49,186 bases of DNA from a virus (lineage: Duplodnaviria > Caudoviricetes): positions 1-49,186 of IMG/VR virus record IMGVR_UViG_3300012665_000850; one strand, given 5' to 3'. A program made the position numbers and the translations under genes. This document shows, one piece after another, positions 1,589 to 41,315 of the stretch (positions are counted from its first letter, which is position 1; each line of letters begins with the position of its first letter). The notes beneath the pieces are model-generated. The model was given only the letters and a program-made list of their open reading frames with translations, did no database searches and had not been told where the DNA came from.

Positions 1589-2089
1589 TTGTCTATCAAT
1601 AAAGCTAAGGCCAACTATGACGATGCTCTTGAAGTAAAGTCTATAGTTGCTTCTGAGTCCGCAGGATTTAATGGTAACACCTCTTTGGCTGGAATTACAA
1701 ATGTGCTAGGAACGCTAGACCTTTCAAAAGGAACAGTATTTTTTGCAGATGGTATCCAGTCAAAGCAGGGTGTTCCATCAATAACTCAGATAAACATAAA
1801 AAACTTTAGCTATACTTTAGCTTCCTTAGATGATAGAGATAGTATTATTGAAATGAACAGTAGTTCTGCAAGCACATTAACTGTTCCACAAGATTCAGTT
1901 CTTAATTTTCCTATAGGAACATCAATAGATATAATTCAAACAAATACAGGACAGACTAATATTGTAGCTGCTCCTGGAGTAACAATTAATGCAACACCTG
2001 GCTTACAACTAAGAACACGCTGGTCTGTTGCAACATTATTTAAAAGAAACGCCAATAGCTGGCTGCTCTTTGGAGATTTAACAGCTTAA
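1589..2089 (+). CDS. Putative virion adaptor/fibre-associated domain protein; paralog of the N-terminus of 38159..39103
   Basis: TTG start. Shares [32 protein letters not shown] and WLL.GDL with the 38159 protein. Confidence 0.7.
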   Translation: MSINKAKANYDDALEVKSIVASESAGFNGNTSLAGITNVLGTLDLSKGTVFFADGIQSKQGVPSITQINIKNFSYTLASLDDRDSIIEMNSSSASTLTVPQDSVLNFPIGTSIDIIQTNTGQTNIVAAPGVTINATPGLQLRTRWSVATLFKRNANSWLLFGDLTA

Positions 2090-2101
2090 AGGAGAAAACA
2101 A

Positions 2102-3664
2102 ATGGGTAAAAAGTCTGGTAGAAAAGCCGATCAATTAGCTGGAGATTTTGATATACCAGTATCTCCAAACAAACCTACAGCAGTAGATGTAGGTACTAAT
2201 CGTCCATATAATAATGGATCAGCTGTTGTCTCTTTTACATATCCATCTGGAAATGCTCCAGCTTCTAGCTATACGGTTATATCTTCTCCAGGAGGATTTA
2301 CAGAAGTTGGAACTTCTAGTCCAATAACTATTATAGGACTTCAATCAGGAATTTCTTATACTTATACTGTAACTGCAACTAATTCAAATGGAACTTCAGA
2401 TCCTTCAGTGCCTTCTGACCCAGTAATTGCTACAACAGTTCCACAAGCACCTCTTAATCCTGGAGTAACATCTACAACTACTGGCCCAGGACATAGCCAG
2501 TCAGATTTACGTGGACAGGATGTTGTTTCATGGCTGGCTCCAGCTACTGGCGGTAAAAATTTAATTGATTATAGAGTTACATCTTCAGATACTGCAGTTC
2601 AACCAGGAGGACTTTCATCTCCATACACAGTAACTGCACCAACAATAACATTAGCTGTAAGAGAAACTATGGGAACAACACAAACCTATTCTATTACTGC
2701 TAGAAATGATAATGGGTCTTCTTTAGCAGCATTTGCTGGATCCGTCACTACATTCTTTTCTCCACCAGCTTTCTTCTCTCCACCATTATTCTTTACACCA
2801 CCGCTATTCTTTTCCCCACCGTTATTCTTTTCACCACCGTTATTTTTTTCACCACCATTATTTTTTTCACCACCATTATTCTTTTCACCACCGCTATTCT
2901 TTTCACCACCCACATTCTTTGGCCCTCCAGGGTTCTTCTCTCCACCAGCGTTTTTCTCCCCACCAGGGTTCTTTACTCCTCCAGGGTTCTTCTCTCCACC
3001 AGCGTTCTTTGGCCCTCCAGGGTTCTTCTCTCCACCAGCGTTTTTCTCCCCGCCTAGATTCTTTTCACCACCATCTTTCTTTTCACCGCCTAGATTCTTT
3101 TCACCACCTAGATTCTTCTCGCCACCTTCATTCTGTATTGTAGAAAATACTTTAGTGTTAACTACAGAAGGATATAAAAAAGCAAAAGATATCAAATCTG
3201 GTGACACATTAATAACTCTCTCATTTGATGATTTGCCGTTAGGAGACCCTAATTGCTCTGTTGGAAATGTTACAGATGAATGCATTGACATTGTTGATAA
3301 ATGGAACTCAAGCGGTTTACATAAAGTAAACTTCTTAGAGTCTAATGTTACAGATATAAAAGAAGCAATATATGAATCTTCTATATATTTTAATGACGAC
3401 ACATCAAAAGAACTATCTTTGTCAGAGCAGATACTTGTTAATAGAGATGAAAAGTTTACTTTTAAAACTACAGCTGAAATTGAAGTAGGAGATATTATAA
3501 TTTCTTATTTAGATAAAGAATTAATAGACATTGAAGTTAAATCTATTAATATTGTAGAAAAAGAAACAAAAGCATTCTTATTTTACAGAGAGCCATACGG
3601 TTTGATTATTGCAGACGGTATGCTTGCCTATAACGGCTGTCCATCAGCGTCCATTGACGCTTAA
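2102..3664 (+). CDS. Fibronectin type III-like domains + 21x FFxPPx repeat + C-terminal Hint-like domain
   Basis: SD AAGGAG upstream. FN3 signatures (GLQSGISYTYTVTATNSNGTS; YSITARNDNGSS). Repeat at 2753-3130. Hint-like block A CIVENTLVLTTEGYKKAKDIKSGD from Cys345 and terminal block IIADGMLAYN. Confidence 0.8.
   Translation: MGKKSGRKADQLAGDFDIPVSPNKPTAVDVGTNRPYNNGSAVVSFTYPSGNAPASSYTVISSPGGFTEVGTSSPITIIGLQSGISYTYTVTATNSNGTSDPSVPSDPVIATTVPQAPLNPGVTSTTTGPGHSQSDLRGQDVVSWLAPATGGKNLIDYRVTSSDTAVQPGGLSSPYTVTAPTITLAVRETMGTTQTYSITARNDNGSSLAAFAGSVTTFFSPPAFFSPPLFFTPPLFFSPPLFFSPPLFFSPPLFFSPPLFFSPPLFFSPPTFFGPPGFFSPPAFFSPPGFFTPPGFFSPPAFFGPPGFFSPPAFFSPPRFFSPPSFFSPPRFFSPPRFFSPPSFCIVENTLVLTTEGYKKAKDIKSGDTLITLSFDDLPLGDPNCSVGNVTDECIDIVDKWNSSGLHKVNFLESNVTDIKEAIYESSIYFNDDTSKELSLSEQILVNRDEKFTFKTTAEIEVGDIIISYLDKELIDIEVKSINIVEKETKAFLFYREPYGLIIADGMLAYNGCPSASIDA
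2753..3130 (+). repeat. 18-bp coding tandem repeat, 21 units of FF[S/T/G]PP[A/L/T/G/R/S]
   Basis: 378 nt = 126 codons = 21 hexapeptides, counted directly. Synonymous codons vary between units. Confidence 0.97.
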
Positions 3665-3682
3665 ATAACTAAATGCTATAGT
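3654..3682 (+). promoter_or_regulatory. Sigma70/SigA-type promoter, probably leaderless, for the oxygenase operon
   Basis: TTGACG (3654-3659), 17 nt, TATAGT (3677-3682) with extended TG. ATG at 3689 with no SD. Confidence 0.7.
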
Positions 3683-3688
3683 GTACTT

Positions 3689-4321
3689 ATGTACTCTAAA
3701 AAAGAAGAAGTATTTCATGGCATCTGGAAATATTCAGATGTTTTTACAGACGACCTTAATTTAATTAATAGAATTGAGTCTGAAGTAGAGAAAGAAGAGT
3801 TTTCTTGGAGAAAAGGAACTGTAGGCTTAGATGCTGAGTTTCCAGAGTATAGGGATTGCTACGACCTTAAACTAAGTAGACTTGGCAAGTCACATGAATT
3901 ATATCAAGATATATATAATGCACAAGTTCCCTGTGTAGATGATTATTGTTCAATGTATACTATTGAAATGAATTATTGGGAATGGACAAATATTGTAAAA
4001 TATGGGCCAGGACAACATTTTAAAGAGCATGCAGATCATGGCTGGTCTTATGTATCAACAGTTTCTTTGGTAGGATATCCTAATGATGATTACGAAGGTG
4101 GAGACCTTTATTTTCCAAAGTTAAATTTAAGATTTAAGCCAAAAGCTGGAGACCTATATATATTCCCATCAGCATATATATATTCACATATTGCAGAGCC
4201 AGTTATTTCTGGAACCAAGTATTGTTTTGCCACTATGCTTGACTATAATGATGATGCACATTCAAAAGAATTTGAAGAGTATTTAGATATAAAATATAAA
4301 AAAGAAAAGAGACTAATATAA
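3689..4321 (+). CDS. 2OG-Fe(II) oxygenase, prolyl 4-hydroxylase-like
   Basis: KYGPGQHFKEHAD, YPNDDYEGGDLYFP, YSHIAEPVISGTKY: HxD...H triad plus Lys. Confidence 0.88.
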   Translation: MYSKKEEVFHGIWKYSDVFTDDLNLINRIESEVEKEEFSWRKGTVGLDAEFPEYRDCYDLKLSRLGKSHELYQDIYNAQVPCVDDYCSMYTIEMNYWEWTNIVKYGPGQHFKEHADHGWSYVSTVSLVGYPNDDYEGGDLYFPKLNLRFKPKAGDLYIFPSAYIYSHIAEPVISGTKYCFATMLDYNDDAHSKEFEEYLDIKYKKEKRLI

Positions 4322-4983
4322 TGTTACCAAACGCCGAACTTCTTTACCCAGGTGTTATTGTATACAGAAATGTTTTTAACGGTTTAAACGTTATTGATAG
4401 ACTAGAAGAAGTTTTATCTAACGACTCCTATGAAGAAAAGTGGGATCAGGCCAGTACTGGTTATTCAAAAATAGACAAGTCTTATAGAGACTGTTGGGAT
4501 CACCATATTAAAAAGAATGTCTTTGACGATGAAGGTAAGCCAGAATCTCAATTAAAGCTAGAGTCTATTTGGCAAGACTGCAAGGATGCTCAGTACGCAG
4601 CCGTAGAAGATTATAGGTCTATGTTTAGCTTAGCTCCTTTAGGATATTGGGAGTCTTTTAATTTTATTAAGTACGGTCCAGGACAGCACTTCCAAGTACA
4701 CTCAGATCACGGGTATTCTTACATCTGTGTTCTTTCTTCTGTTGGTTACGTTAATGATGACTACGAAGGCGGTGAGCTTTACTTTGATAAGCTTGGTCTA
4801 AAGATAAAGCCACAGGCTGGAGACCTATATCTTTTCCCATCATCTTATATTTATTCTCACTCAGCAATGCCAGTAACAAACGGAGTTAAATATTCCGTTG
4901 TAACAATGCTAGATTATTCTTTGGCTCCACATTCTCCAGAATATCGTGAGATAGAACAAAAGTATAGATTAATTCACGAGTAA
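4321..4983 (+). CDS. 2OG-Fe(II) oxygenase, prolyl 4-hydroxylase-like; close paralog of 3689..4321
   Basis: KYGPGQHFQVHSD, YVNDDYEGGELYF, YSHSAMPVTNGVKY. TAATG coupling to the previous gene. Confidence 0.88.
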   Translation: MLPNAELLYPGVIVYRNVFNGLNVIDRLEEVLSNDSYEEKWDQASTGYSKIDKSYRDCWDHHIKKNVFDDEGKPESQLKLESIWQDCKDAQYAAVEDYRSMFSLAPLGYWESFNFIKYGPGQHFQVHSDHGYSYICVLSSVGYVNDDYEGGELYFDKLGLKIKPQAGDLYLFPSSYIYSHSAMPVTNGVKYSVVTMLDYSLAPHSPEYREIEQKYRLIHE

Positions 4984-4991
4984 GGTATAAC

Positions 4992-5702
4992 ATGATTAAC
5001 CTAGAAGTTTTCAGAACTGGCCCAGACTCAGCTAACATAGAGCCCTTGTCTGGTAAAAGACAATGGATGGACGAAAGCCAAGAAAAGCATGCATACAGAT
5101 GTTTTCCTTTAAGCTTAAGCAATCAATTAGGCTGGGCAATATCATTTCCAGAAGATATAACATTTATGTGGGATGGACAAATTACAACTTCTCCTGATAA
5201 TGTAAAGGTCTTACAAGGAGAAAAATATTGTAGCACTGGAAGAGGAAATGCTACTATTAGTTTTAATACTAACCTTACATTTAGAACAGATAAAAGCCAT
5301 AGCCTTCTTTCTTATCCAGCCCCAAATCATTTTGTAGATGGAGCAACACCGTTTACAACAATTATGAGCACTTCATTTTTTGAAGGACAGCTCCCAGTTT
5401 CTTGGAGAATTACTAGAGCCTTTCATCCAATAACAATTAAAGCAGGAGAACCAATTATTGCAGTAATGCCAATATCTTTAACAGATATTCATGGATCAAC
5501 GCTTTATATGAAGTCTCCAGATGACATGAAGCCAATTCATAGAGAAAAGCCACTGACTCTTGAAGGTGCAATTGAAGCTGGTAATAAGGCAGCTCTAAAT
5601 GGCGGTTGGACAGACTATTACCGAGATGCAGTAGACTACATGGGCAATAAATTAGGTGAGCATGAAGTAAAATCTATTAAGTTAAAGATAGAGGGAGCTT
5701 AA
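4992..5702 (+). CDS. DUF6065-like protein
   Basis: R.WMDE..EKHAYRCFPLSLSNQLGW and IKAGEPIIAVMP resemble DUF6065 as recalled; not searched. Confidence 0.6.
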   Translation: MINLEVFRTGPDSANIEPLSGKRQWMDESQEKHAYRCFPLSLSNQLGWAISFPEDITFMWDGQITTSPDNVKVLQGEKYCSTGRGNATISFNTNLTFRTDKSHSLLSYPAPNHFVDGATPFTTIMSTSFFEGQLPVSWRITRAFHPITIKAGEPIIAVMPISLTDIHGSTLYMKSPDDMKPIHREKPLTLEGAIEAGNKAALNGGWTDYYRDAVDYMGNKLGEHEVKSIKLKIEGA

Positions 5703-5703
5703 A

Positions 5704-6417
5704 ATTAATACAATAAGATTTTGGTCTAATCGGGTTAGCAATGATAATTCTACCGTTCCTCAGCCTACAAAAAAATTAGTTCCAGAATGGTTTGCAAGTG
5801 CAAATAAGTATTGGAAAGGCGAAGATGGAAAAGACTTTCAGGTAACTGAAGAAGAAAAAGGTTTAGGGTTTAAGGCTTGTCCAGCTTTACTAGATATATT
5901 TACTTCAGGTTATTTACTTGTTACTCCCTGCGATATAGTTATATATAAACAAAATGATGTTAAGCATGTAGTTTGTTCTCCTGGATTTGATGATTTTTGT
6001 GGCACAAGAGAATATATGGGCGGATTTGAATATCCAAAAGGATACGGCAAAGACTCCTTTCATTGGTATTTAAATTGGGGTTTTGATTTACCAGAGGGCT
6101 ATAGCGCATTAGTAATCCACCCAATAAATAGATTTGAGTTACCATTTTTAACAACAAGCGGTATAATTGATAGTGATAGATACAGCTTACCAGGACTTAT
6201 ACCATTTTTTGTAAAGGAAGATTTTACTGGTGTTATTCCTAAAGGAACTCCGTATGCACAGGTTATCCCTTTCAAAAGAGAAGACTGGAAAGCAGAATAC
6301 AAATTTTTAGAAGAAAAAGAAATGATTGAAAGATATGAAAAAGATGTTAAGATATACAGAGTTCCATTCGGTGGAGTATATAAAAAAAGAACATGGGCAA
6401 AGAAAAAGTATGAATAG
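5704..6417 (+). CDS. DUF6065-like/dUTPase-fold-like protein, probably starting at ATT (longer than the 6016..6417 track call)
   Basis: The frame is open from 5692 to 6417. SD-like GAGGGAG (5691-5697) precedes ATT at 5704. The upstream part reads ..KKLVPEWF..FKACPALLDIFTSGYLLVTPCDI..; the C-terminus has IPKGTPYAQVIPFKREDW. Confidence 0.7.
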   Translation: MNTIRFWSNRVSNDNSTVPQPTKKLVPEWFASANKYWKGEDGKDFQVTEEEKGLGFKACPALLDIFTSGYLLVTPCDIVIYKQNDVKHVVCSPGFDDFCGTREYMGGFEYPKGYGKDSFHWYLNWGFDLPEGYSALVIHPINRFELPFLTTSGIIDSDRYSLPGLIPFFVKEDFTGVIPKGTPYAQVIPFKREDWKAEYKFLEEKEMIERYEKDVKIYRVPFGGVYKKRTWAKKKYE

Positions 6418-6425
6418 AGGAAAAT

Positions 6426-7103
6426 ATGAATAACGATGTTAGCTGGGATGAAGGCATAAGAACAGCAAGAACCTCCATTACACCTTCAGGCTATTTTGGT
6501 AACAGCAAAGATAATATTGTAGAGCTTGAGAACATTATCACAGAAGAAGAATGTGAGTTCCTTTTAAACTTTGCCAAGACAAATACTATTTGGGATGTAA
6601 CAAGATCGGCAAAAAATGAGAACGGCAACGTCATATATGATGCCGATGTTTGGGCAAACAGAGTAGCAACAAAGCCTTCTTTAGATCAATGTGATCCAAA
6701 AGTAACAGAGATGCTAAAGGCTATCTATGATAGAATTAAGCCTCACTTAGAAAAGCATTTTAATGTTGAGTGCTACCCAACTGGCCCATGCGTTGTAAGA
6801 TGGCCAGTAGGATCAATGCAATGGCCTCACGCAGATAAAGAATTGCATGAAGGCCCAGATAAAGGAACACCAGGAAACTTTCCATGGTATGACCTAGGAA
6901 CGGTTATTTATTTTAACGATGATTACGAAGGTGGAAGACTACATTTTCCACAACATGATGTTGCTTTTAAACCAAAGAAAAGGGCAGCGTACTTTTTCCC
7001 AGGAGACAAAAATTACATTCATGGTGTAGATGTAATGACAGAAGGAACCAGATATACATCTCCGTTATTCTGGACTATTACAAAATTGGAAGCAGATAAA
7101 TAA
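6426..7103 (+). CDS. 2OG-Fe(II) oxygenase, prolyl hydroxylase-like
   Basis: WPHADK, YFNDDYEGGRLHFP, YIHGVDVMTEGTRYT (Arg type). Confidence 0.88.
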   Translation: MNNDVSWDEGIRTARTSITPSGYFGNSKDNIVELENIITEEECEFLLNFAKTNTIWDVTRSAKNENGNVIYDADVWANRVATKPSLDQCDPKVTEMLKAIYDRIKPHLEKHFNVECYPTGPCVVRWPVGSMQWPHADKELHEGPDKGTPGNFPWYDLGTVIYFNDDYEGGRLHFPQHDVAFKPKKRAAYFFPGDKNYIHGVDVMTEGTRYTSPLFWTITKLEADK

Positions 7104-7897
7104 TGTCAAACTTTACAGTAAATACTTTATATCCAAAGATAGATGTGTATAAGGGATTGCTCCCATTAAACAAAGAAATATTTGAAGTTATTAAAAGCAC
7201 AGAAGATAACACTGGAGAGCATTACTTTAATCCATGGACTCCATGGGCTTCTTTTGGTCAATACTCCTCAACTAAATTTAGAGATGCTATGCAGGATAGA
7301 CGTGGTCAGGACGAGACTTTTGATAAGCAATACTGGGCAGCAGAAGCAGTTTACGATGCATATAAGATTGCAGTAGATGATTATATTGAAAGAAATAATG
7401 TTGAGCTACCAGAAGGATCGGCTCTGGGGTCATCTTCATTTTGTAAGTACCATAGTAATTTAGATGTGCTTAATAATCAGCTAACAATGCAGTATCATAC
7501 AGATTTTAAAAGAGTTGAAAAAGACATGCCAGGAAATCAATTCTTTTTAACATGCACAGTTTACATAAATGATGATTACGATGGCGGAGACATCATGTTT
7601 TACGTAGATGGAGATCACTTATCTTACAAGCCAGAAGCTGGAGATATAATGGTCTTTCCTTCAGGAGAGCCATATTATCATGGAGTTAAAACAGCAACAA
7701 ATGGCACAAAGTATTTAATAAGAAACTTTATGATTTACCCAAACCCTGGCTCTAAAGAATGGTTAGAAAACCAAGCACGTTATGGGGCAGTAAAATGGGC
7801 AAAGATGGAAGAAGAAAGACTTGCTGCAGCAAAATATGGCGGTAACGTTTTTATTAAAGACGGCAAGCTAGTAGATAGTCCAACAGAAGGAGAATAA
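7103..7897 (+). CDS. 2OG-Fe(II) oxygenase, prolyl hydroxylase-like
   Basis: MQYHTD, YINDDYDGGDIMF, YYHGVKTATNGTKY. TAATG coupling. Confidence 0.88.
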   Translation: MSNFTVNTLYPKIDVYKGLLPLNKEIFEVIKSTEDNTGEHYFNPWTPWASFGQYSSTKFRDAMQDRRGQDETFDKQYWAAEAVYDAYKIAVDDYIERNNVELPEGSALGSSSFCKYHSNLDVLNNQLTMQYHTDFKRVEKDMPGNQFFLTCTVYINDDYDGGDIMFYVDGDHLSYKPEAGDIMVFPSGEPYYHGVKTATNGTKYLIRNFMIYPNPGSKEWLENQARYGAVKWAKMEEERLAAAKYGGNVFIKDGKLVDSPTEGE

Positions 7898-7898
7898 A

Positions 7899-8606
7899 AT
7901 GGATATTGTTCAATTAAGAGAAGACATTTGGGTAGTTGATAATTTAATTACAGAATCAGAATGTCAGTCAATAATTAATTATTTAGATGGCATAGTAAAT
8001 GCAAATCTTTTAGAGTGGAATCAAATTTCATTCTACGGTTCTTTTGCAATGGGATATTGGCCAAGAGATCCAAATCTTCTAATGTTTGGTTTGCCAGAAG
8101 ACTACTTTGCACAGCTTAAAGAAAAAATTAAGAAGGCTAGCGAAGAGTGCCTTGGGCGTGAACTTTCAGAAGTAAGTTATCATGCTCAAAAATGGGTAGA
8201 AGGGGCATTTGCATCATTCCATTCAGATAATACTCATGAAGACGGATCGCCAAGCGCCTTCTATAGAAGTAAGTACGCAGGATTCCTTTATTTAAATGAT
8301 AACTTTGACGGTGGTATGCTAAACTTTAAAAACTTTGATGTTACAGTAAAAGCAAAACCAGGCAGATATGCATTCTTTAGAGGTGGGCATGGAAACGAAC
8401 ATGAAGTTACCACTGTGAGAAATGGAGAAAGATATACAGTTGGATCATTCTGGGATAATGCAGATGAAACATATAATGAAGAACTTTTAGCCTTATGGGA
8501 AAAAGAACTTAAACAAACAAGAGAAGATCAAGAAAGAACTTATGCTCAATGGGCAGAAGATAAGAAAAAGGGAATAGAACCTCAGCATAAGGGTAAATAT
8601 GATTAA
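7899..8606 (+). CDS. 2OG-Fe(II) oxygenase, prolyl hydroxylase-like
   Basis: SFHSDN, YLNDNFDGGMLNF, EHEVTTVRNGERYT (Arg type). Confidence 0.88.
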   Translation: MDIVQLREDIWVVDNLITESECQSIINYLDGIVNANLLEWNQISFYGSFAMGYWPRDPNLLMFGLPEDYFAQLKEKIKKASEECLGRELSEVSYHAQKWVEGAFASFHSDNTHEDGSPSAFYRSKYAGFLYLNDNFDGGMLNFKNFDVTVKAKPGRYAFFRGGHGNEHEVTTVRNGERYTVGSFWDNADETYNEELLALWEKELKQTREDQERTYAQWAEDKKKGIEPQHKGKYD

Positions 8607-9192
8607 GACAATACTGCATCCAGAAATTCATTATTATAAAAATGTAATTGAAGACCCACAGGGTTTTATAAAAGAGCTAGAAGAAATGGATGAGCTTCAG
8701 CCAACAGTCTCCCAAATATCAGCATGGCAGCAATGGGATTCATCCCGTAAGGATGCAGTTTTTGGATCAATCAAAAGATGTTTTTTAAATTTGTATCAAA
8801 ACGAAACAGACGTAGATAGATCAAATTCAAAGCTTTGTTCAATTATTGCACACAATGCAATATCTATAGGAGAACAATATTCTGCAGACTCTGGAATAGA
8901 GCTAGGATACCTACCAGTTTATTTTGGTATAAATAAATACAATATAGGTGTTCACATGGGCGCTCACGTAGACGCTTATGATGGAGCACAGGATACATCT
9001 ACAGTTTCAATGGTAATGTATTTAAATGATGACTATGAGGGTGGAGAAATAGAATTCCCAGACCATGGAATATTGTTAAAGCCAGAAGCTGGAAGCGTGG
9101 TTGTCTTTTCTTCAAGAGGGATTCTGCATGACCCAAAGCCAACAATATCTGGAACAAAGTATATGGTTCCCATATTCTTTTTCAAAAGATAG
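8599..9192 (+). CDS. 2OG-Fe(II) oxygenase, prolyl hydroxylase-like
   Basis: MGAHVD, YLNDDYEGGEIEFP, LHDPKPTISGTKY. Confidence 0.88.
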   Translation: MIKTILHPEIHYYKNVIEDPQGFIKELEEMDELQPTVSQISAWQQWDSSRKDAVFGSIKRCFLNLYQNETDVDRSNSKLCSIIAHNAISIGEQYSADSGIELGYLPVYFGINKYNIGVHMGAHVDAYDGAQDTSTVSMVMYLNDDYEGGEIEFPDHGILLKPEAGSVVVFSSRGILHDPKPTISGTKYMVPIFFFKR

Positions 9193-38158: not shown

Positions 38159-39103
38159 TTGTCCATAAAGAAAGCAAACGTAAATTACAATGATGCCTTA
38201 GAGGTAAAATCTATATCATCATCATTGTCTGCTGGATTTACAGGAGTCACTTCTTTTGCTGGACAAGTTAGATTATTAGGCACCCTTAATCTTTCTAAAG
38301 GTACTGTATTTTTTGCAGACGGCATTCAGTCAAAGCAGGCTACACCTTCCCTCACAAATATATATACCAAGTATTTTAACTATACCCTCTCATCTTTGGA
38401 CGAGAGGGATAGCTTAATTCAGATGAATAGCACAATTGCAAATGTTTTAACCGTTCCATCAGATAGCAAAACTAATTTCCCAGTTGGAACAACAATTGAT
38501 ATTCTACAAGCAAATACAGGGCAGACAATTATATTCTCAGAAGATGATGTTCAAATTGATTTTACACCAGGGTTTTCTTTAAGACAGCAGTGGTCAACAG
38601 CTACTCTTTTAAAGAGAGCCCCAAATACTTGGTTACTTTACGGAGATCTTGTATTAGCAGATGTTCCAGTTGCTGCATTTTTTAATTTTGAAACACCTGC
38701 TCCAACACCAGAGCCTACACCAGCGCCAACACCAGCGCCAACACCAGCGCCTACACCAGCGCCTACACCAGCGCCAGGACCAGGACCTACACCAGCGCCT
38801 ACACCAGCGCCAACACCAGCTCCAACACCAGCGCCAGGACCAGGACCTACACCAGCGCCAGGACCAGGACCTACACCAGCGCCAACACCAGCGCCAACAC
38901 CAGCGCCTACACCAGCGCCTACACCAGCGCCAACACCAGCGCCAACACCAGCGCCAACACCAGCGCCAACACCAGCGCCAACACCGACACGCAGCGGTAG
39001 AAGATGTTCATCTGCTCAAGCGGCAGCAGGAGAATACTGTTTTAGTACAAGCGAGTGTTTACCAACAGGAGTTGGAGCGGGCTCAGGATGTTGTTGCTGG
39101 TAA
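38159..39103 (+). CDS. Adaptor-domain protein with (TPAP/GPGP)n repeat and Cys-rich tail
   Basis: N-terminus is a paralog of 1589..2089; 99-aa X-P repeat; ends [19 protein letters not shown]. Confidence 0.8.
38693..38989 (+). repeat. 12-bp coding tandem repeat (ACACCAGCGCCW) encoding about 24 TPAP-type units with three GPGP variants
   Basis: Read directly; every second residue is Pro. Confidence 0.97.
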
Positions 39104-39131
39104 TTTATAAAATAAAAGAAATGGAATAAAG

Positions 39132-39581
39132 ATGATTACAGAATCAGATATAGAGTTTGTATATGGCAGAGATGAAAGCCACGCTCTTTGCTGGGTTATA
39201 GATGAAGAGTGTCTATATGACATGGCAATTAATGATCAATACGCCACCTTATTTTTGCTAAATGATAGAATTGAGGATGTGTCTGAGTTATATCCAGATA
39301 ATGCTGGGATTACTGTAAGATTTATTAAAGATGATACCATCATGGAAGATTTTAATACAAGTGAATATTTTGGCAACATACTTTTGAGTCCTCATAAGGT
39401 AATAAACTTATTAGGACATGCTTATGGAAACTATGTAGTATCTCCTTATGCAAATTTTATTAATAATGAGTTTGTAATTACTGAAGAAGATAGAGTAGAC
39501 TTAGAGCCATTTCCACCTTCTGCGCTTATAAAAGAATGTACACAGGAGAACTGCCATTGTTATAAGGCAGATAATGTCTAA
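39132..39581 (+). CDS. Acidic hypothetical protein
   Basis: 149-aa ORF; C-terminal CTQENCHC. Confidence 0.65.
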   Translation: MITESDIEFVYGRDESHALCWVIDEECLYDMAINDQYATLFLLNDRIEDVSELYPDNAGITVRFIKDDTIMEDFNTSEYFGNILLSPHKVINLLGHAYGNYVVSPYANFINNEFVITEEDRVDLEPFPPSALIKECTQENCHCYKADNV

Positions 39582-39804
39582 AAGTAGATGGCAAGAATAT
39601 AAAGAAAAAAATGGGGTTACCCCACTAGATTTATTAAATCCTCAAACTAGGCGTACTACAGATGAGGTATCTAATACAAGAATGTCAATATGTAATGGTT
39701 GTCCAGAGTTGATTAAAATTACATCCCAGTGTAAAAAATGTGGTTGCTTTATGTCAGCAAAAACTAAATTAGAATTAGCAAAATGTCCAGTAGGGAAGTG
39801 GTAA
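39574..39804 (+). CDS. Small Cys-rich metal-binding protein (DUF6171-like)
   Basis: RMSICNGCPEL..QCKKCGCFM..KCPVGKW. Confidence 0.7.
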   Translation: MSKSRWQEYKEKNGVTPLDLLNPQTRRTTDEVSNTRMSICNGCPELIKITSQCKKCGCFMSAKTKLELAKCPVGKW

Positions 39805-39805
39805 A

Positions 39806-40345
39806 ATGATTAAAGAATACACAGGATTAATTCCAGATGAATTGGCTCAAAGATTTTATGATTATGGTTTTTCTATTGCAATGGGTAATTATACTGAAGC
39901 TCCCAGAAGTATTTGGACTAGTTTAAAATGGCATCCAACTTTAGTTACAAATAGTGGTTTAGTGCTATGTATTAGGCCAACAGAGCAAATGGAAAAAGAG
40001 CTAGAAGAAATATTAATAGAAAATGGAATTTTAGATTTAAAAAAAGATAAAAGAATTACTGAGACTGCTTCTGTAATAAATATTTGGGGAAGAGGATCTT
40101 TTATAACTGCTCATCCTGATGGCAACTATAGTAAAGCAATAACTATCTATTTAAACAAAGATTGGAATCACGACCAAGGTGGATTTTTTAATTGGCAAGA
40201 TGAATCTAGCGGTAAATGGAATGTTGTTTCTCCTACATTTAATAAGGCAGTAGTAAATGGAGGAGGGGTATTGCATGGAATCTCTCCAGTACAATCAGAC
40301 TTCAGAATAACTCTGCAAATTTTTGTGCATAAGGTTGATGTGTGA
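39806..40345 (+). CDS. 2OG-Fe(II) oxygenase, prolyl hydroxylase-like
   Basis: ITAHPDG, IYLNKDWNHDQGGFF, PTFNKAV, LHGISPV..FRITLQIF. Confidence 0.85.
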   Translation: MIKEYTGLIPDELAQRFYDYGFSIAMGNYTEAPRSIWTSLKWHPTLVTNSGLVLCIRPTEQMEKELEEILIENGILDLKKDKRITETASVINIWGRGSFITAHPDGNYSKAITIYLNKDWNHDQGGFFNWQDESSGKWNVVSPTFNKAVVNGGGVLHGISPVQSDFRITLQIFVHKVDV

Positions 40346-40404
40346 TAAAATTAGTTCAATTAGATCCTAATGGGTTATGTACTCACGCAATATGGAAAGA
40401 GTAA
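40342..40404 (+). pseudogene. 20-codon mini-ORF MIKLVQLDPNGLCTHAIWKE, possible deletion remnant of a radical SAM-type gene
   Basis: Its GTG overlaps the upstream TGA and its TAA overlaps the downstream ATG. The remnant identity is inference. Confidence 0.35.
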
Positions 40405-41315
40405 TGAAAAAAAGCATTTTTATACAGATAACCTCATACCACGACTATGAGATTAAAAAAACTATTATAGATGCAATAGATAAGTCTTCAGGTAAAACAG
40501 AGCTTGTTTTTGGAGTTCATTCAATATTTTACAATGAGAATTCATGGATTGAGCCAGTAAAAAATATGTCAAGCGTCAAGTTAATTGAAAGCAAAGCACC
40601 AGATAATTTAGGAATTGGACTTGGAAGGTTTATTTCTCATAGCCTTTATTCTGGAGAAGATTATTATTTACAAATAGATGCTCACAGTAGATTTGATTTA
40701 GGCTGGGATATATTTTTAATTAATGAAATAGAAACTCATAAAGCAAATGGATTTAAAAAACCATTAATAACTCAGTACCCTAAACCATTTTGGTATGAAG
40801 GAGAAATAGAAAAAACACGTGATGGTGAAGAAGCTGTAACTCAATTTTATTGGAAAGATAAGCAAAGGTTTAAAGACAGTAGAGTTTCTTTGCAAGGCAC
40901 AATTGTAAACAAAGAAAAAAATATTTTTTCAATTTCAGTATCTGGTGGTTGTATTTTTACAGAAGGAGAATTTTTAAAGCCTAATAAGCTAATATTTGCC
41001 GAGGGAGAAGAAATATTTACAGCGGCAAGAGCTTACACTAACGGATATGATTTATTTGTCCCAAGTAAAATGTTTATGTATCATTTATATTATGGAGCAG
41101 AAGGAAAAAATAAAAGGAGGCTTGCTTTTGAAGATTGGCCAAAAGAAACAATTAGACTAGGTGATATTTCCCATAATGAGATTAAATTTGTTTTAACTGG
41201 AGAAGGAGTAGTTGGAGAATATCGACTGGGCACAGAGAGATCTTTATCTGAATACGGAAAATTTGCTGGACTAGATTTTAATTCTGGTGAAATTTTAGAT
41301 AACTTCTCTTGTTAA
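40404..41315 (+). CDS. GT60-like (Pfam GlcNAc family) glycosyltransferase
   Basis: SIFIQITSYHD.E..KT, YYLQIDAHSRF..GWD (DxH), GEEI..AARAYTNGYDLF.P..YHLY; start placed at the TAATG-coupled ATG 40404. Confidence 0.8.
   Translation: MKKSIFIQITSYHDYEIKKTIIDAIDKSSGKTELVFGVHSIFYNENSWIEPVKNMSSVKLIESKAPDNLGIGLGRFISHSLYSGEDYYLQIDAHSRFDLGWDIFLINEIETHKANGFKKPLITQYPKPFWYEGEIEKTRDGEEAVTQFYWKDKQRFKDSRVSLQGTIVNKEKNIFSISVSGGCIFTEGEFLKPNKLIFAEGEEIFTAARAYTNGYDLFVPSKMFMYHLYYGAEGKNKRRLAFEDWPKETIRLGDISHNEIKFVLTGEGVVGEYRLGTERSLSEYGKFAGLDFNSGEILDNFSC

Follow-up and report, generated by a model that had tools for sequence, protein, structure and literature searches.

Few accessory genes are as numerous in aquatic phages as those of 2-oxoglutarate (2OG)-Fe(II) oxygenases, to which the accessible parts of the literature (e.g. 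PMC10436341) assign no substrate. The closest array described is that of cyanophage Syn9 (gp41-gp54), where ten dioxygenases in tandem are accompanied by two halogenases and by a dUTPase-fold gene with a conserved Cys (PMC2938197). The sections of that paper available to us propose secondary-metabolite synthesis and name no protein substrate. Here we describe a 49,186-nucleotide stretch of viral DNA (IMGVR_UViG_3300012665_000850, positions 1 to 49,186; hereafter the window), in which a cassette at 1589..9192 combines a protein bearing a long Phe/Pro-Pro repeat with six predicted 2OG-Fe(II) oxygenases. On balance, we favour the view that the phage uses the array to hydroxylate its own Pro-Pro repeats, carried by virion fibre-type proteins. 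An initial annotation, made from the letters of the window alone, knew of no characterised phage system with this layout. That still holds for the link between repeat and enzymes: the literature we searched (mostly open-access papers) contained no description of the cassette or of such a link. It does not hold for the enzyme half, which is of a known kind because the Syn9 array had already been described. The link to the proposed substrate was absent from the literature we searched, whereas arrays of phage dioxygenases that include a dUTPase-fold gene are in print (Syn9).

The repeat protein and the oxygenase array

The repeat protein (2102..3664, + strand; 520 aa) had the architecture FN3-(FFxPPx)21-Phe-Cys-Hint. 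Pfam fn3 was matched at aa 36-106 (E 7e-8), and we judged a second FN3-like domain, without a Pfam match, to span about aa 115-215. The translation contained 21 tandem FFxPPx hexapeptides (aa 218-343; 2753..3130, + strand), followed by Phe344 and Cys345. Both the number of units and the single residue between them and the Hint-like Cys were as initially annotated. The repeat codons were varied, with 17 different 18-mers among the 21 units, and three tandem units never arose in 200 rounds of shuffling the window proteins. In several genomes the same repeat was attached to two fibre-type proteins. The fibre-block position, the FN3 domain and the exchange of the C-terminal cap for an S74 chaperone in relatives indirectly suggest that 2102..3664 is likely a virion fibre-type protein, and it is the likely substrate. 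Among the isolated phages of INPHARED, the repeat protein had one weak FN3 match only.

The oxygenases were all encoded on the + strand. We clustered 502 distinct oxygenases of related loci, which gave five main classes (A-E). ox1 (3689..4321; H114, D116, H167, K177) and ox2 (4321..4983; H127, D129, H180, K190) belonged to class A. Classes B, C, D and E were represented by ox3 (6426..7103; H135, D137, H199, R209), ox4 (7103..7897; H132, D134, H193, K203), ox5 (7899..8606; H108, D110, H168, R178) and ox6 (8599..9192; H123, D125, H177, K187), respectively. Each enzyme carried the iron triad (HxD and a distal His) and, ten residues past that His, the 2OG-binding Lys or Arg; these positions were invariant or nearly so in the five class alignments. 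PF13640 was matched by all six reading frames, five of them over the curated cut-off and ox3 slightly below it, which bears out the initial assignment of six HxD...H oxygenases. Against the PDB, the class profiles ranked the prolyl 4-hydroxylase (P4H) of B. anthracis first for A (1e-7), B (6e-6) and E (9e-10), and prolyl 3-hydroxylase 1 (P3H1) first for D (3e-8) and C (only 3e-3). Class B also matched P3H1 (E 1e-5), and PKHD-type and lysyl hydroxylases gave weaker matches. The closest solved relatives of ox1-ox6 are peptidyl-proline 4- or 3-hydroxylases, with ox1, ox2 and ox6 P4H-like; membership in these families is predicted. An NCBIfam scan returned sub-cut-off matches only. A complex prediction that joined ox2 to iron and to seven units of the repeat scored 0.01 and was not used as evidence.

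Two further + strand genes stood between ox2 and ox3, a DUF6065 protein (4992..5702; Pfam E 2.5e-33) and a second, related protein (5704..6417; phrog_7084, E 8e-36). Intergenic gaps within the array ranged from -8 to +8 nt. The gap between the repeat gene and ox1 was 24 nt and held a promoter-like site (3654..3682, + strand; TTGACG, 17 nt, extended -10 TGCTATAGT), 6 nt 5' of the ox1 start. Counting loci whose first enzyme starts at most 120 nt after the repeat gene, the strict extended -10 pattern TGnTAnnnT was present in 48/48 distinct junctions between repeat gene and array, versus 48/299 junctions within arrays. These loci are kin, so the 48 junctions represent conservation and not 48 independent events. 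Given this conserved site in the gap, the array probably has its own transcription unit. The coupled operon initially drawn straight on from the repeat gene is therefore retained for the array, but the promoter-like site splits the array off from that gene. RNA runs X17 and X20 gave only short pieces, from which neither a start site nor transcription could be read.

The cassette was flanked by fibre-type genes on one side and by a LamG gene and the portal on the other; the array lay within the structural block, with the replication genes at least 33 kb away. The window is a 49-kb virus record with Pfam- and PHROG-annotated genes of a long-tailed phage, namely portal (11362), prohead protease, capsid protein, tape measure, DnaB, primase and DNA polymerase III alpha. 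In a freshwater run (X2), a close strain was present on two contigs of 8.4 and 8.7 kb, and its repeat was longer by one in-frame 18-nt unit. A WhiB gene in G011, a complete relative of 110 kb, suggests an actinobacterial host, and we infer that the window phage is an uncultured freshwater actinophage-type siphovirus of lakes. Upstream of the repeat gene, 1589..2089 (+ strand; 166 aa) matched PHROG virion, minor tail and tail fibre families (E 1e-17 to 1e-11) and was assigned to the fibre block also by synteny. Its C-terminal domain terminates long tail-fibre-like proteins 5' of the repeat gene in relatives as well, and it is a candidate anchor of the repeat protein.

Repeat type and enzyme class in related loci

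A search with the repeat protein yielded 76 loci, in which gene order was kept down to about 30% identity. Scanning for the DNA pattern of the repeat gave 124 loci, 80 with flanks, in 59 groups. Fifty-five of these groups had the array, three were cut off within 2.3 kb, and one (L222, 78-5724, a virophage- or polinton-like contig) was rejected as a chance match on the antisense strand of a Lys/Gly-rich gene. Three scans that started from DUF6065 gave 84 groups, of which 16 had no upstream room; a repeat gene stood upstream in 65 of the remaining 68 and was missing in 3. The co-occurrence in phage metagenomes that had initially been suggested as a check was found from either end. An estimated 1100 or so stored viral stretches match DUF6065 patterns, and the isolated phages of INPHARED had no match to the DUF6065 gene. 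A GTDB scan also placed the cassette in five loci of bacterial metagenome-assembled genomes (L167-L171); these look like mis-binned phage contigs, because L167 runs on into LamG and portal genes.

Homologues with Pro-Pro-free repeats, such as FGFSP or YNF, provided a natural control, gathered by scanning with an FN3/Hint alignment and with a pattern. We examined 442 loci, of which 108 were distinct and complete from the repeat gene to the portal region; duplicates, truncated loci and loci without the gene made up the remainder. Class A, to which ox1 and ox2 belong, was present in 78/78 Pro-Pro loci and in 0/30 Pro-Pro-free loci. At least three of the classes A-E were found in 76/78 versus 0/30, and DUF6065 in 75/78 versus 0/30. 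The Pro-Pro-free loci instead had an unrelated HxH oxygenase family (22 loci) or only the gene of the second dUTPase-fold protein (8 loci). The correlation between repeat type and enzyme class thus had no exception among the 108 loci, and it comprises few evolutionary events. Since relatives carry class A only where the repeat has Pro-Pro, the repeat is its likely target. By eye, the variable residues of the repeat did not correspond to enzyme content among the Pro-Pro loci.

We also observed that the HxH-type family (phrog_2696, no Pfam match) occurs in one to three copies directly after FGFSP- or YNF-type repeats (L381:2864-3523, L383:3795-5083, L394:10815-11483, L408:8032-10024). These enzymes are possible Phe, Tyr or Asn hydroxylases. 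In several Pro-Pro-free relatives, the interval from the repeat gene to the portal held a ribonucleotide reductase of class II (B12) (L383:5302-7329 and similar).

Two more lineages carried related enzymes. In phages of 160-205 kb, the repeat was located on a protein of 110-170 aa without FN3, and its neighbours were again class-A-like oxygenases and DUF6065. Arrays of classes A-E without a nearby repeat were found in a third lineage, whose portal belongs to another family. The sole complete record of this lineage (G020) had neither DUF6065 nor the PPFF repeat; besides G013, described next, five long records had no PPFF match, and DUF6065 was unmatched in three of these and weakly matched in two. 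Among the longer records of the repeat-less array lineage, 0/10 had a strong DUF6065 match and 3 a weak one. An overlap of 12,355 bp at 99.98% joined G002, a fragment with an array and no repeat, to G013, in which a PPFF-repeat protein of 375 aa was encoded some 47 kb away from the array. This pair is the single in-trans case against simple linkage. In G013 the repeat protein is followed, within one module (L666:7298-13898), by DUF6171, two dUTPase-fold genes, a sulfotransferase, a beta-hydroxylase, a methyltransferase-like gene, an oxygenase and APS kinase; L036 shares the sulfotransferase and beta-hydroxylase. The repeat-less array lineage (L151, L161, L163, L309-L324) at first looked like a refutation of the link. 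The overlap of G002 with G013 removed this objection for one member; the others, fragments of at most 40 kb, may still count against the link.

Proposed hydroxylation of the repeat and its alternatives

In the mechanism that we propose, a fibre-region protein with a long Phe/Pro-Pro repeat would be hydroxylated by the six adjoining oxygenases and then displayed on the virion. A host-type promoter of its own would drive the array, in which class A (ox1/ox2) would act on Pro-Pro, and the Arg-type enzymes ox3 and ox5 may add 3-hydroxyproline. Accessory enzymes that vary by phage (GT60, sulfotransferase, beta-hydroxylase) would decorate the hydroxyls, and the product would be a stiff modified stalk affecting host binding or particle stability. 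The initial annotation also took the repeat as the substrate, either as a surface fibre or as a precursor released by Hint cleavage. Its fibre branch has gained comparative support from class A tracking Pro-Pro, from the three lineages and from the P4H and P3H relatives, whereas its release branch has lost ground, as discussed below.

Several observations weigh against hydroxylation of the repeat. On the portal tree (88 loci with a portal sequence), each trait changes four times, and only three starred independent pairs are obtained; class A agrees in 3/3 (p=0.25), and with the full array as the trait two pairs agree and one does not differ (p=0.5). On two FN3 trees (134 loci) the independent pairs agreed 3/3 and 6/6, and the latter, from a short FastTree alignment with 21 state changes, is probably noisy. 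Most Pro-Pro loci were retrieved with the enzymes or the repeat as the query, so the 78:30 split is no random sample, and the 110-bit class cut-off was our own choice. Arrays that occur independently of Pro-repeat genes had been named at the outset as grounds for refutation; the 65/68 groups and the G002/G013 overlap speak otherwise, but G001 (39.7 kb, 38% complete) has an array and no repeat match. Neighbouring genes can also travel together without acting on one another, and only the one trans case argues to the contrary. Six oxygenases seem many for a single hexapeptide, and solved hydroxylases are matched at modest E-values (1e-10 to 3e-3). The dUTPase-fold proteins point to nucleotides; distant relatives of 5704..6417 adjoin thymidylate synthase in halovirus HSTV-2 and lie near ribonucleotide reductase in S-RIM4. 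Finally, the available text of PMC7019647 reports that no hydroxyproline was detected in purified chlorovirus virions despite their P4H.

The dUTPase-fold proteins call for closer consideration. The initial annotation had named two DUF6065-like proteins. The first is DUF6065 by its Pfam match, and the second, which has no Pfam match, is supported by phrog_7084, by its alignment with the first (hhalign 74%) and by the same predicted fold. The fold models (pLDDT 92 and 85.5) resembled trimeric dUTPase in structure comparison, with VIA Z 10.3 (rmsd 2.8, 109 aligned) and 9.5 (rmsd 3.6, 121 aligned) and a Foldseek E of 2e-4. Trimeric dUTPases have five catalytic motifs. The protein at 4992..5702 has an invariant Cys37 and a degenerate motif III without the Asp. 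The one at 5704..6417 has an invariant Cys59, keeps the motif III Asp in a GIIDSD stretch and a motif-IV-like Gln, and has no motif I Asp or motif II Arg-Ser. By these motifs, neither appears to be a full dUTPase. The second gene probably starts at the ATT at 5704: a GAGGGAG ribosome site lies upstream, the aligned codon in relatives is ATG or TTG, and the window gene has no usual start codon. DUF6065 fusions were looked for among longer proteins and none was found, which is weak evidence. Apart from the cassette, the family of 5704..6417 was matched in 49 halovirus records; HSTV-2 gene 40 (L182:7848-8717) lies beside thymidylate synthase, and that one viewed record had no oxygenase array.

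The predicted fold of both proteins, with the motif-III-like Asp in one of them, would fit an array that encodes a pathway for nucleotides or small molecules, has a promoter of its own and belongs to a variable island that follows the fibre genes and is linked to the repeat gene. We regard this as unlikely, although the separate promoter-like site, the few independent changes on the portal tree and the class II ribonucleotide reductase in the same interval of some relatives are in keeping with it, as is the secondary-metabolite proposal for Syn9 in the accessible text of PMC2938197. It is opposed by the change of enzyme family with repeat chemistry at the same position, by the co-occurrence of repeat and array across about 47 kb in G002/G013, and by the location of the array in the structural block. 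We must also note that the array encodes no peptide synthetase or halogenase, and that for Tet_JBP, the family of TET/JBP DNA-base oxygenases, only ox6 scored, with 16.9 bits against a cut-off of 34.9.

It is improbable that the oxygenases instead hydroxylate host or other phage proteins during infection, with the repeat as at most one of several targets. The bacterial P4Hs that are the best PDB matches act on EF-Tu, five divergent classes would suit several targets, and a promoter-like site of host type hints at expression earlier than that of the late genes. However, such targets leave unaccounted for both the absence of class A from all 30 Pro-Pro-free relatives and the position of DUF6065 arrays behind the repeat in 65/68 groups.

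The C-terminal domain of the repeat protein bears on the release branch. It spanned Cys345 to Asn511 (3134..3634, + strand) and was recognised by profile comparison, with the BIL domain 2lwy as the best PDB match (E 3e-5); as a single sequence it matched no Pfam family. As in a BIL domain, the Hint fold (by profile), Cys1 and the terminal Asn are present, at the place of a C-terminal self-processing-type cap. In contrast to it, the window copy has no His at block B position 10 (SLSEQ), and its penultimate residue is Tyr, not His. Asn511 is followed by Gly and eight further residues, with no Cys, Ser or Thr at +1 and no C-extein. The B10 His is important according to the accessible part of PMC4031507, and self-cleavage of the window Hint is doubtful. 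Among the 78 Pro-Pro loci, 53 had a long Hint-like tail (Cys1 in 46, Ser1 in 7; His at B10 in 11) and 25, a third, a short or Cys-rich tail. A Peptidase_S74 chaperone (PF13884) took the same place in two loci, fused to the repeat in L201 and as the next gene in L234. S74 domains occur in tail fibres and spikes. As judged from these tails, Hint is not the core of the system and is an optional C-terminal cap, which an S74 chaperone or a Cys tail can replace and which can also be absent. We also observed three extra conserved Cys in the Hint of the window clade, two in an insert (3236..3272) and one just past Asn-Gly (3638..3640), which may bind a metal or form disulfides.

Clusters for ribosomally synthesised and post-translationally modified peptides (RiPPs) have a short precursor with leader and core, plus a protease or exporter. 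It is very improbable that the repeat is a RiPP-like multi-core precursor, cut to modified hexapeptides after Hint cleavage: the near-identical tandem units with two variable positions, the many tailoring enzymes alongside and Cys1 one residue past the last unit recall one, but the 520-aa protein is multidomain, no protease or transporter family occurs among the reading frames of 1589..9192, the units have no spacers and Hint cleavage would remove the cap without splitting them, and Hint is missing in 25/78 loci and has no B10 His in the window. The S74 cap in two loci and the same repeat on several fibre-type proteins of one genome favour a structural fibre over such a precursor, and this part of the initial annotation is not supported.

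If the repeat is indeed hydroxylated, hydroxyproline chemistry, and possibly hydroxyproline glycosylation, would exist on a bacteriophage particle. DUF6065 would gain a pathway, and new small prolyl 3- and 4-hydroxylases would become available. With a defined hexapeptide, small soluble enzymes and the Pro-Pro-free relatives as negative control, this can be put to the test on synthetic peptides. More tentatively, freshwater actinophages may possess a general, swappable particle-tailoring system, in which each type of fibre-appended, low-complexity aromatic repeat comes with its own enzymes. The sets could then be P4H/P3H-like enzymes with DUF6065 for Pro-Pro and HxH enzymes for Pro-Pro-free repeats, followed by GT60, sulfotransferase or methyltransferase; this perhaps yields a hydroxylated, glycosylated fibre of extensin- or collagen-like character. 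The many orphan 2OG oxygenases that aquatic phages encode, now filed as metabolic genes, would thereby gain a substrate class.

A second Pro-rich module and comparison with known systems

The window contained a second Pro-rich module (38159..41315), 5' of which lay a fibre-type protein of 992 aa with four Listeria-Bacteroides repeats (PF09479; 34685..37663). Its first gene, in the fibre block (38159..39103, + strand), has as its N-terminal half a paralogue of 1589..2089 (65% identity), fused to a Thr-Pro-Ala-Pro repeat (38693..38989, + strand; 99 aa, 49 Pro) and a Cys-rich tail. On the same strand, it was followed by a 149-aa gene and a 76-aa DUF6171-like Cys protein (39132..39804), which is also found 3' of Pro-rich repeat genes in many relatives. 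Next came a seventh oxygenase, ox7 (39806..40345), and a GT60-type GlcNAc transferase (40377..41315; PF11397, E 2e-34; no PDB sequence match), also on the + strand. These two are a candidate hydroxylase/glycosyltransferase pair for the Thr-Pro-Ala-Pro repeat. Elsewhere, GT60 stood after repeat genes (L201, L239) or before the array (L108).

The order of ox7 and GT60 resembles the Skp1 pathway of Dictyostelium and Toxoplasma, in which the prolyl hydroxylase PhyA is followed by the GT60 enzyme Gnt1, which glycosylates hydroxyproline (PMC6939170, in the part accessible to us). That pathway is eukaryotic and modifies one proline on Skp1, whereas the phage enzymes are predicted and GT60 also includes enzymes reported as polypeptide GlcNAc transferases. 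The P4H of chlorovirus PBCV-1 (PDB 5c5t; PMC7019647, seen in part) is likewise a viral enzyme, hydroxylates Pro-containing peptides in vitro and was matched by classes A and E. It is, however, a single enzyme of an algal virus, with neither an array nor an adjacent repeat gene described in that part of the source.

The bacterial beta-hydroxylase/sulfotransferase operons predicted in the available sections of PMC2938197, with collagen-like or tail-collar proteins, share the combination of a repeat surface protein, hydroxylases and decorating enzymes; relatives of the window phage add a sulfotransferase, a beta-hydroxylase and APS kinase. Those operons use other oxygenase families and Gly-rich repeats, whereas here FFxPPx is joined by P4H- and P3H-like classes in a phage. 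With Syn9 the cassette shares tandem unrelated 2OG-Fe(II) dioxygenases and a Cys-bearing dUTPase-fold protein, also located after fibre genes, and 5704..6417 is a distant relative of gp43 (23%, pairwise E 1e-5). Syn9 differs by two Trp halogenases and a JmjC enzyme, neither of which had a Pfam or PHROG match in 1589..9192, and its upstream proteins are Gly-rich and not Pro/Phe-rich. By the features compared, the cassette is neither a RiPP cluster nor a TET/JBP system, its Hint is not a splicing intein, and its dUTPase-fold proteins do not form a full dUTPase pair. By analogy, it may work like a modification system of the collagen or extensin type.

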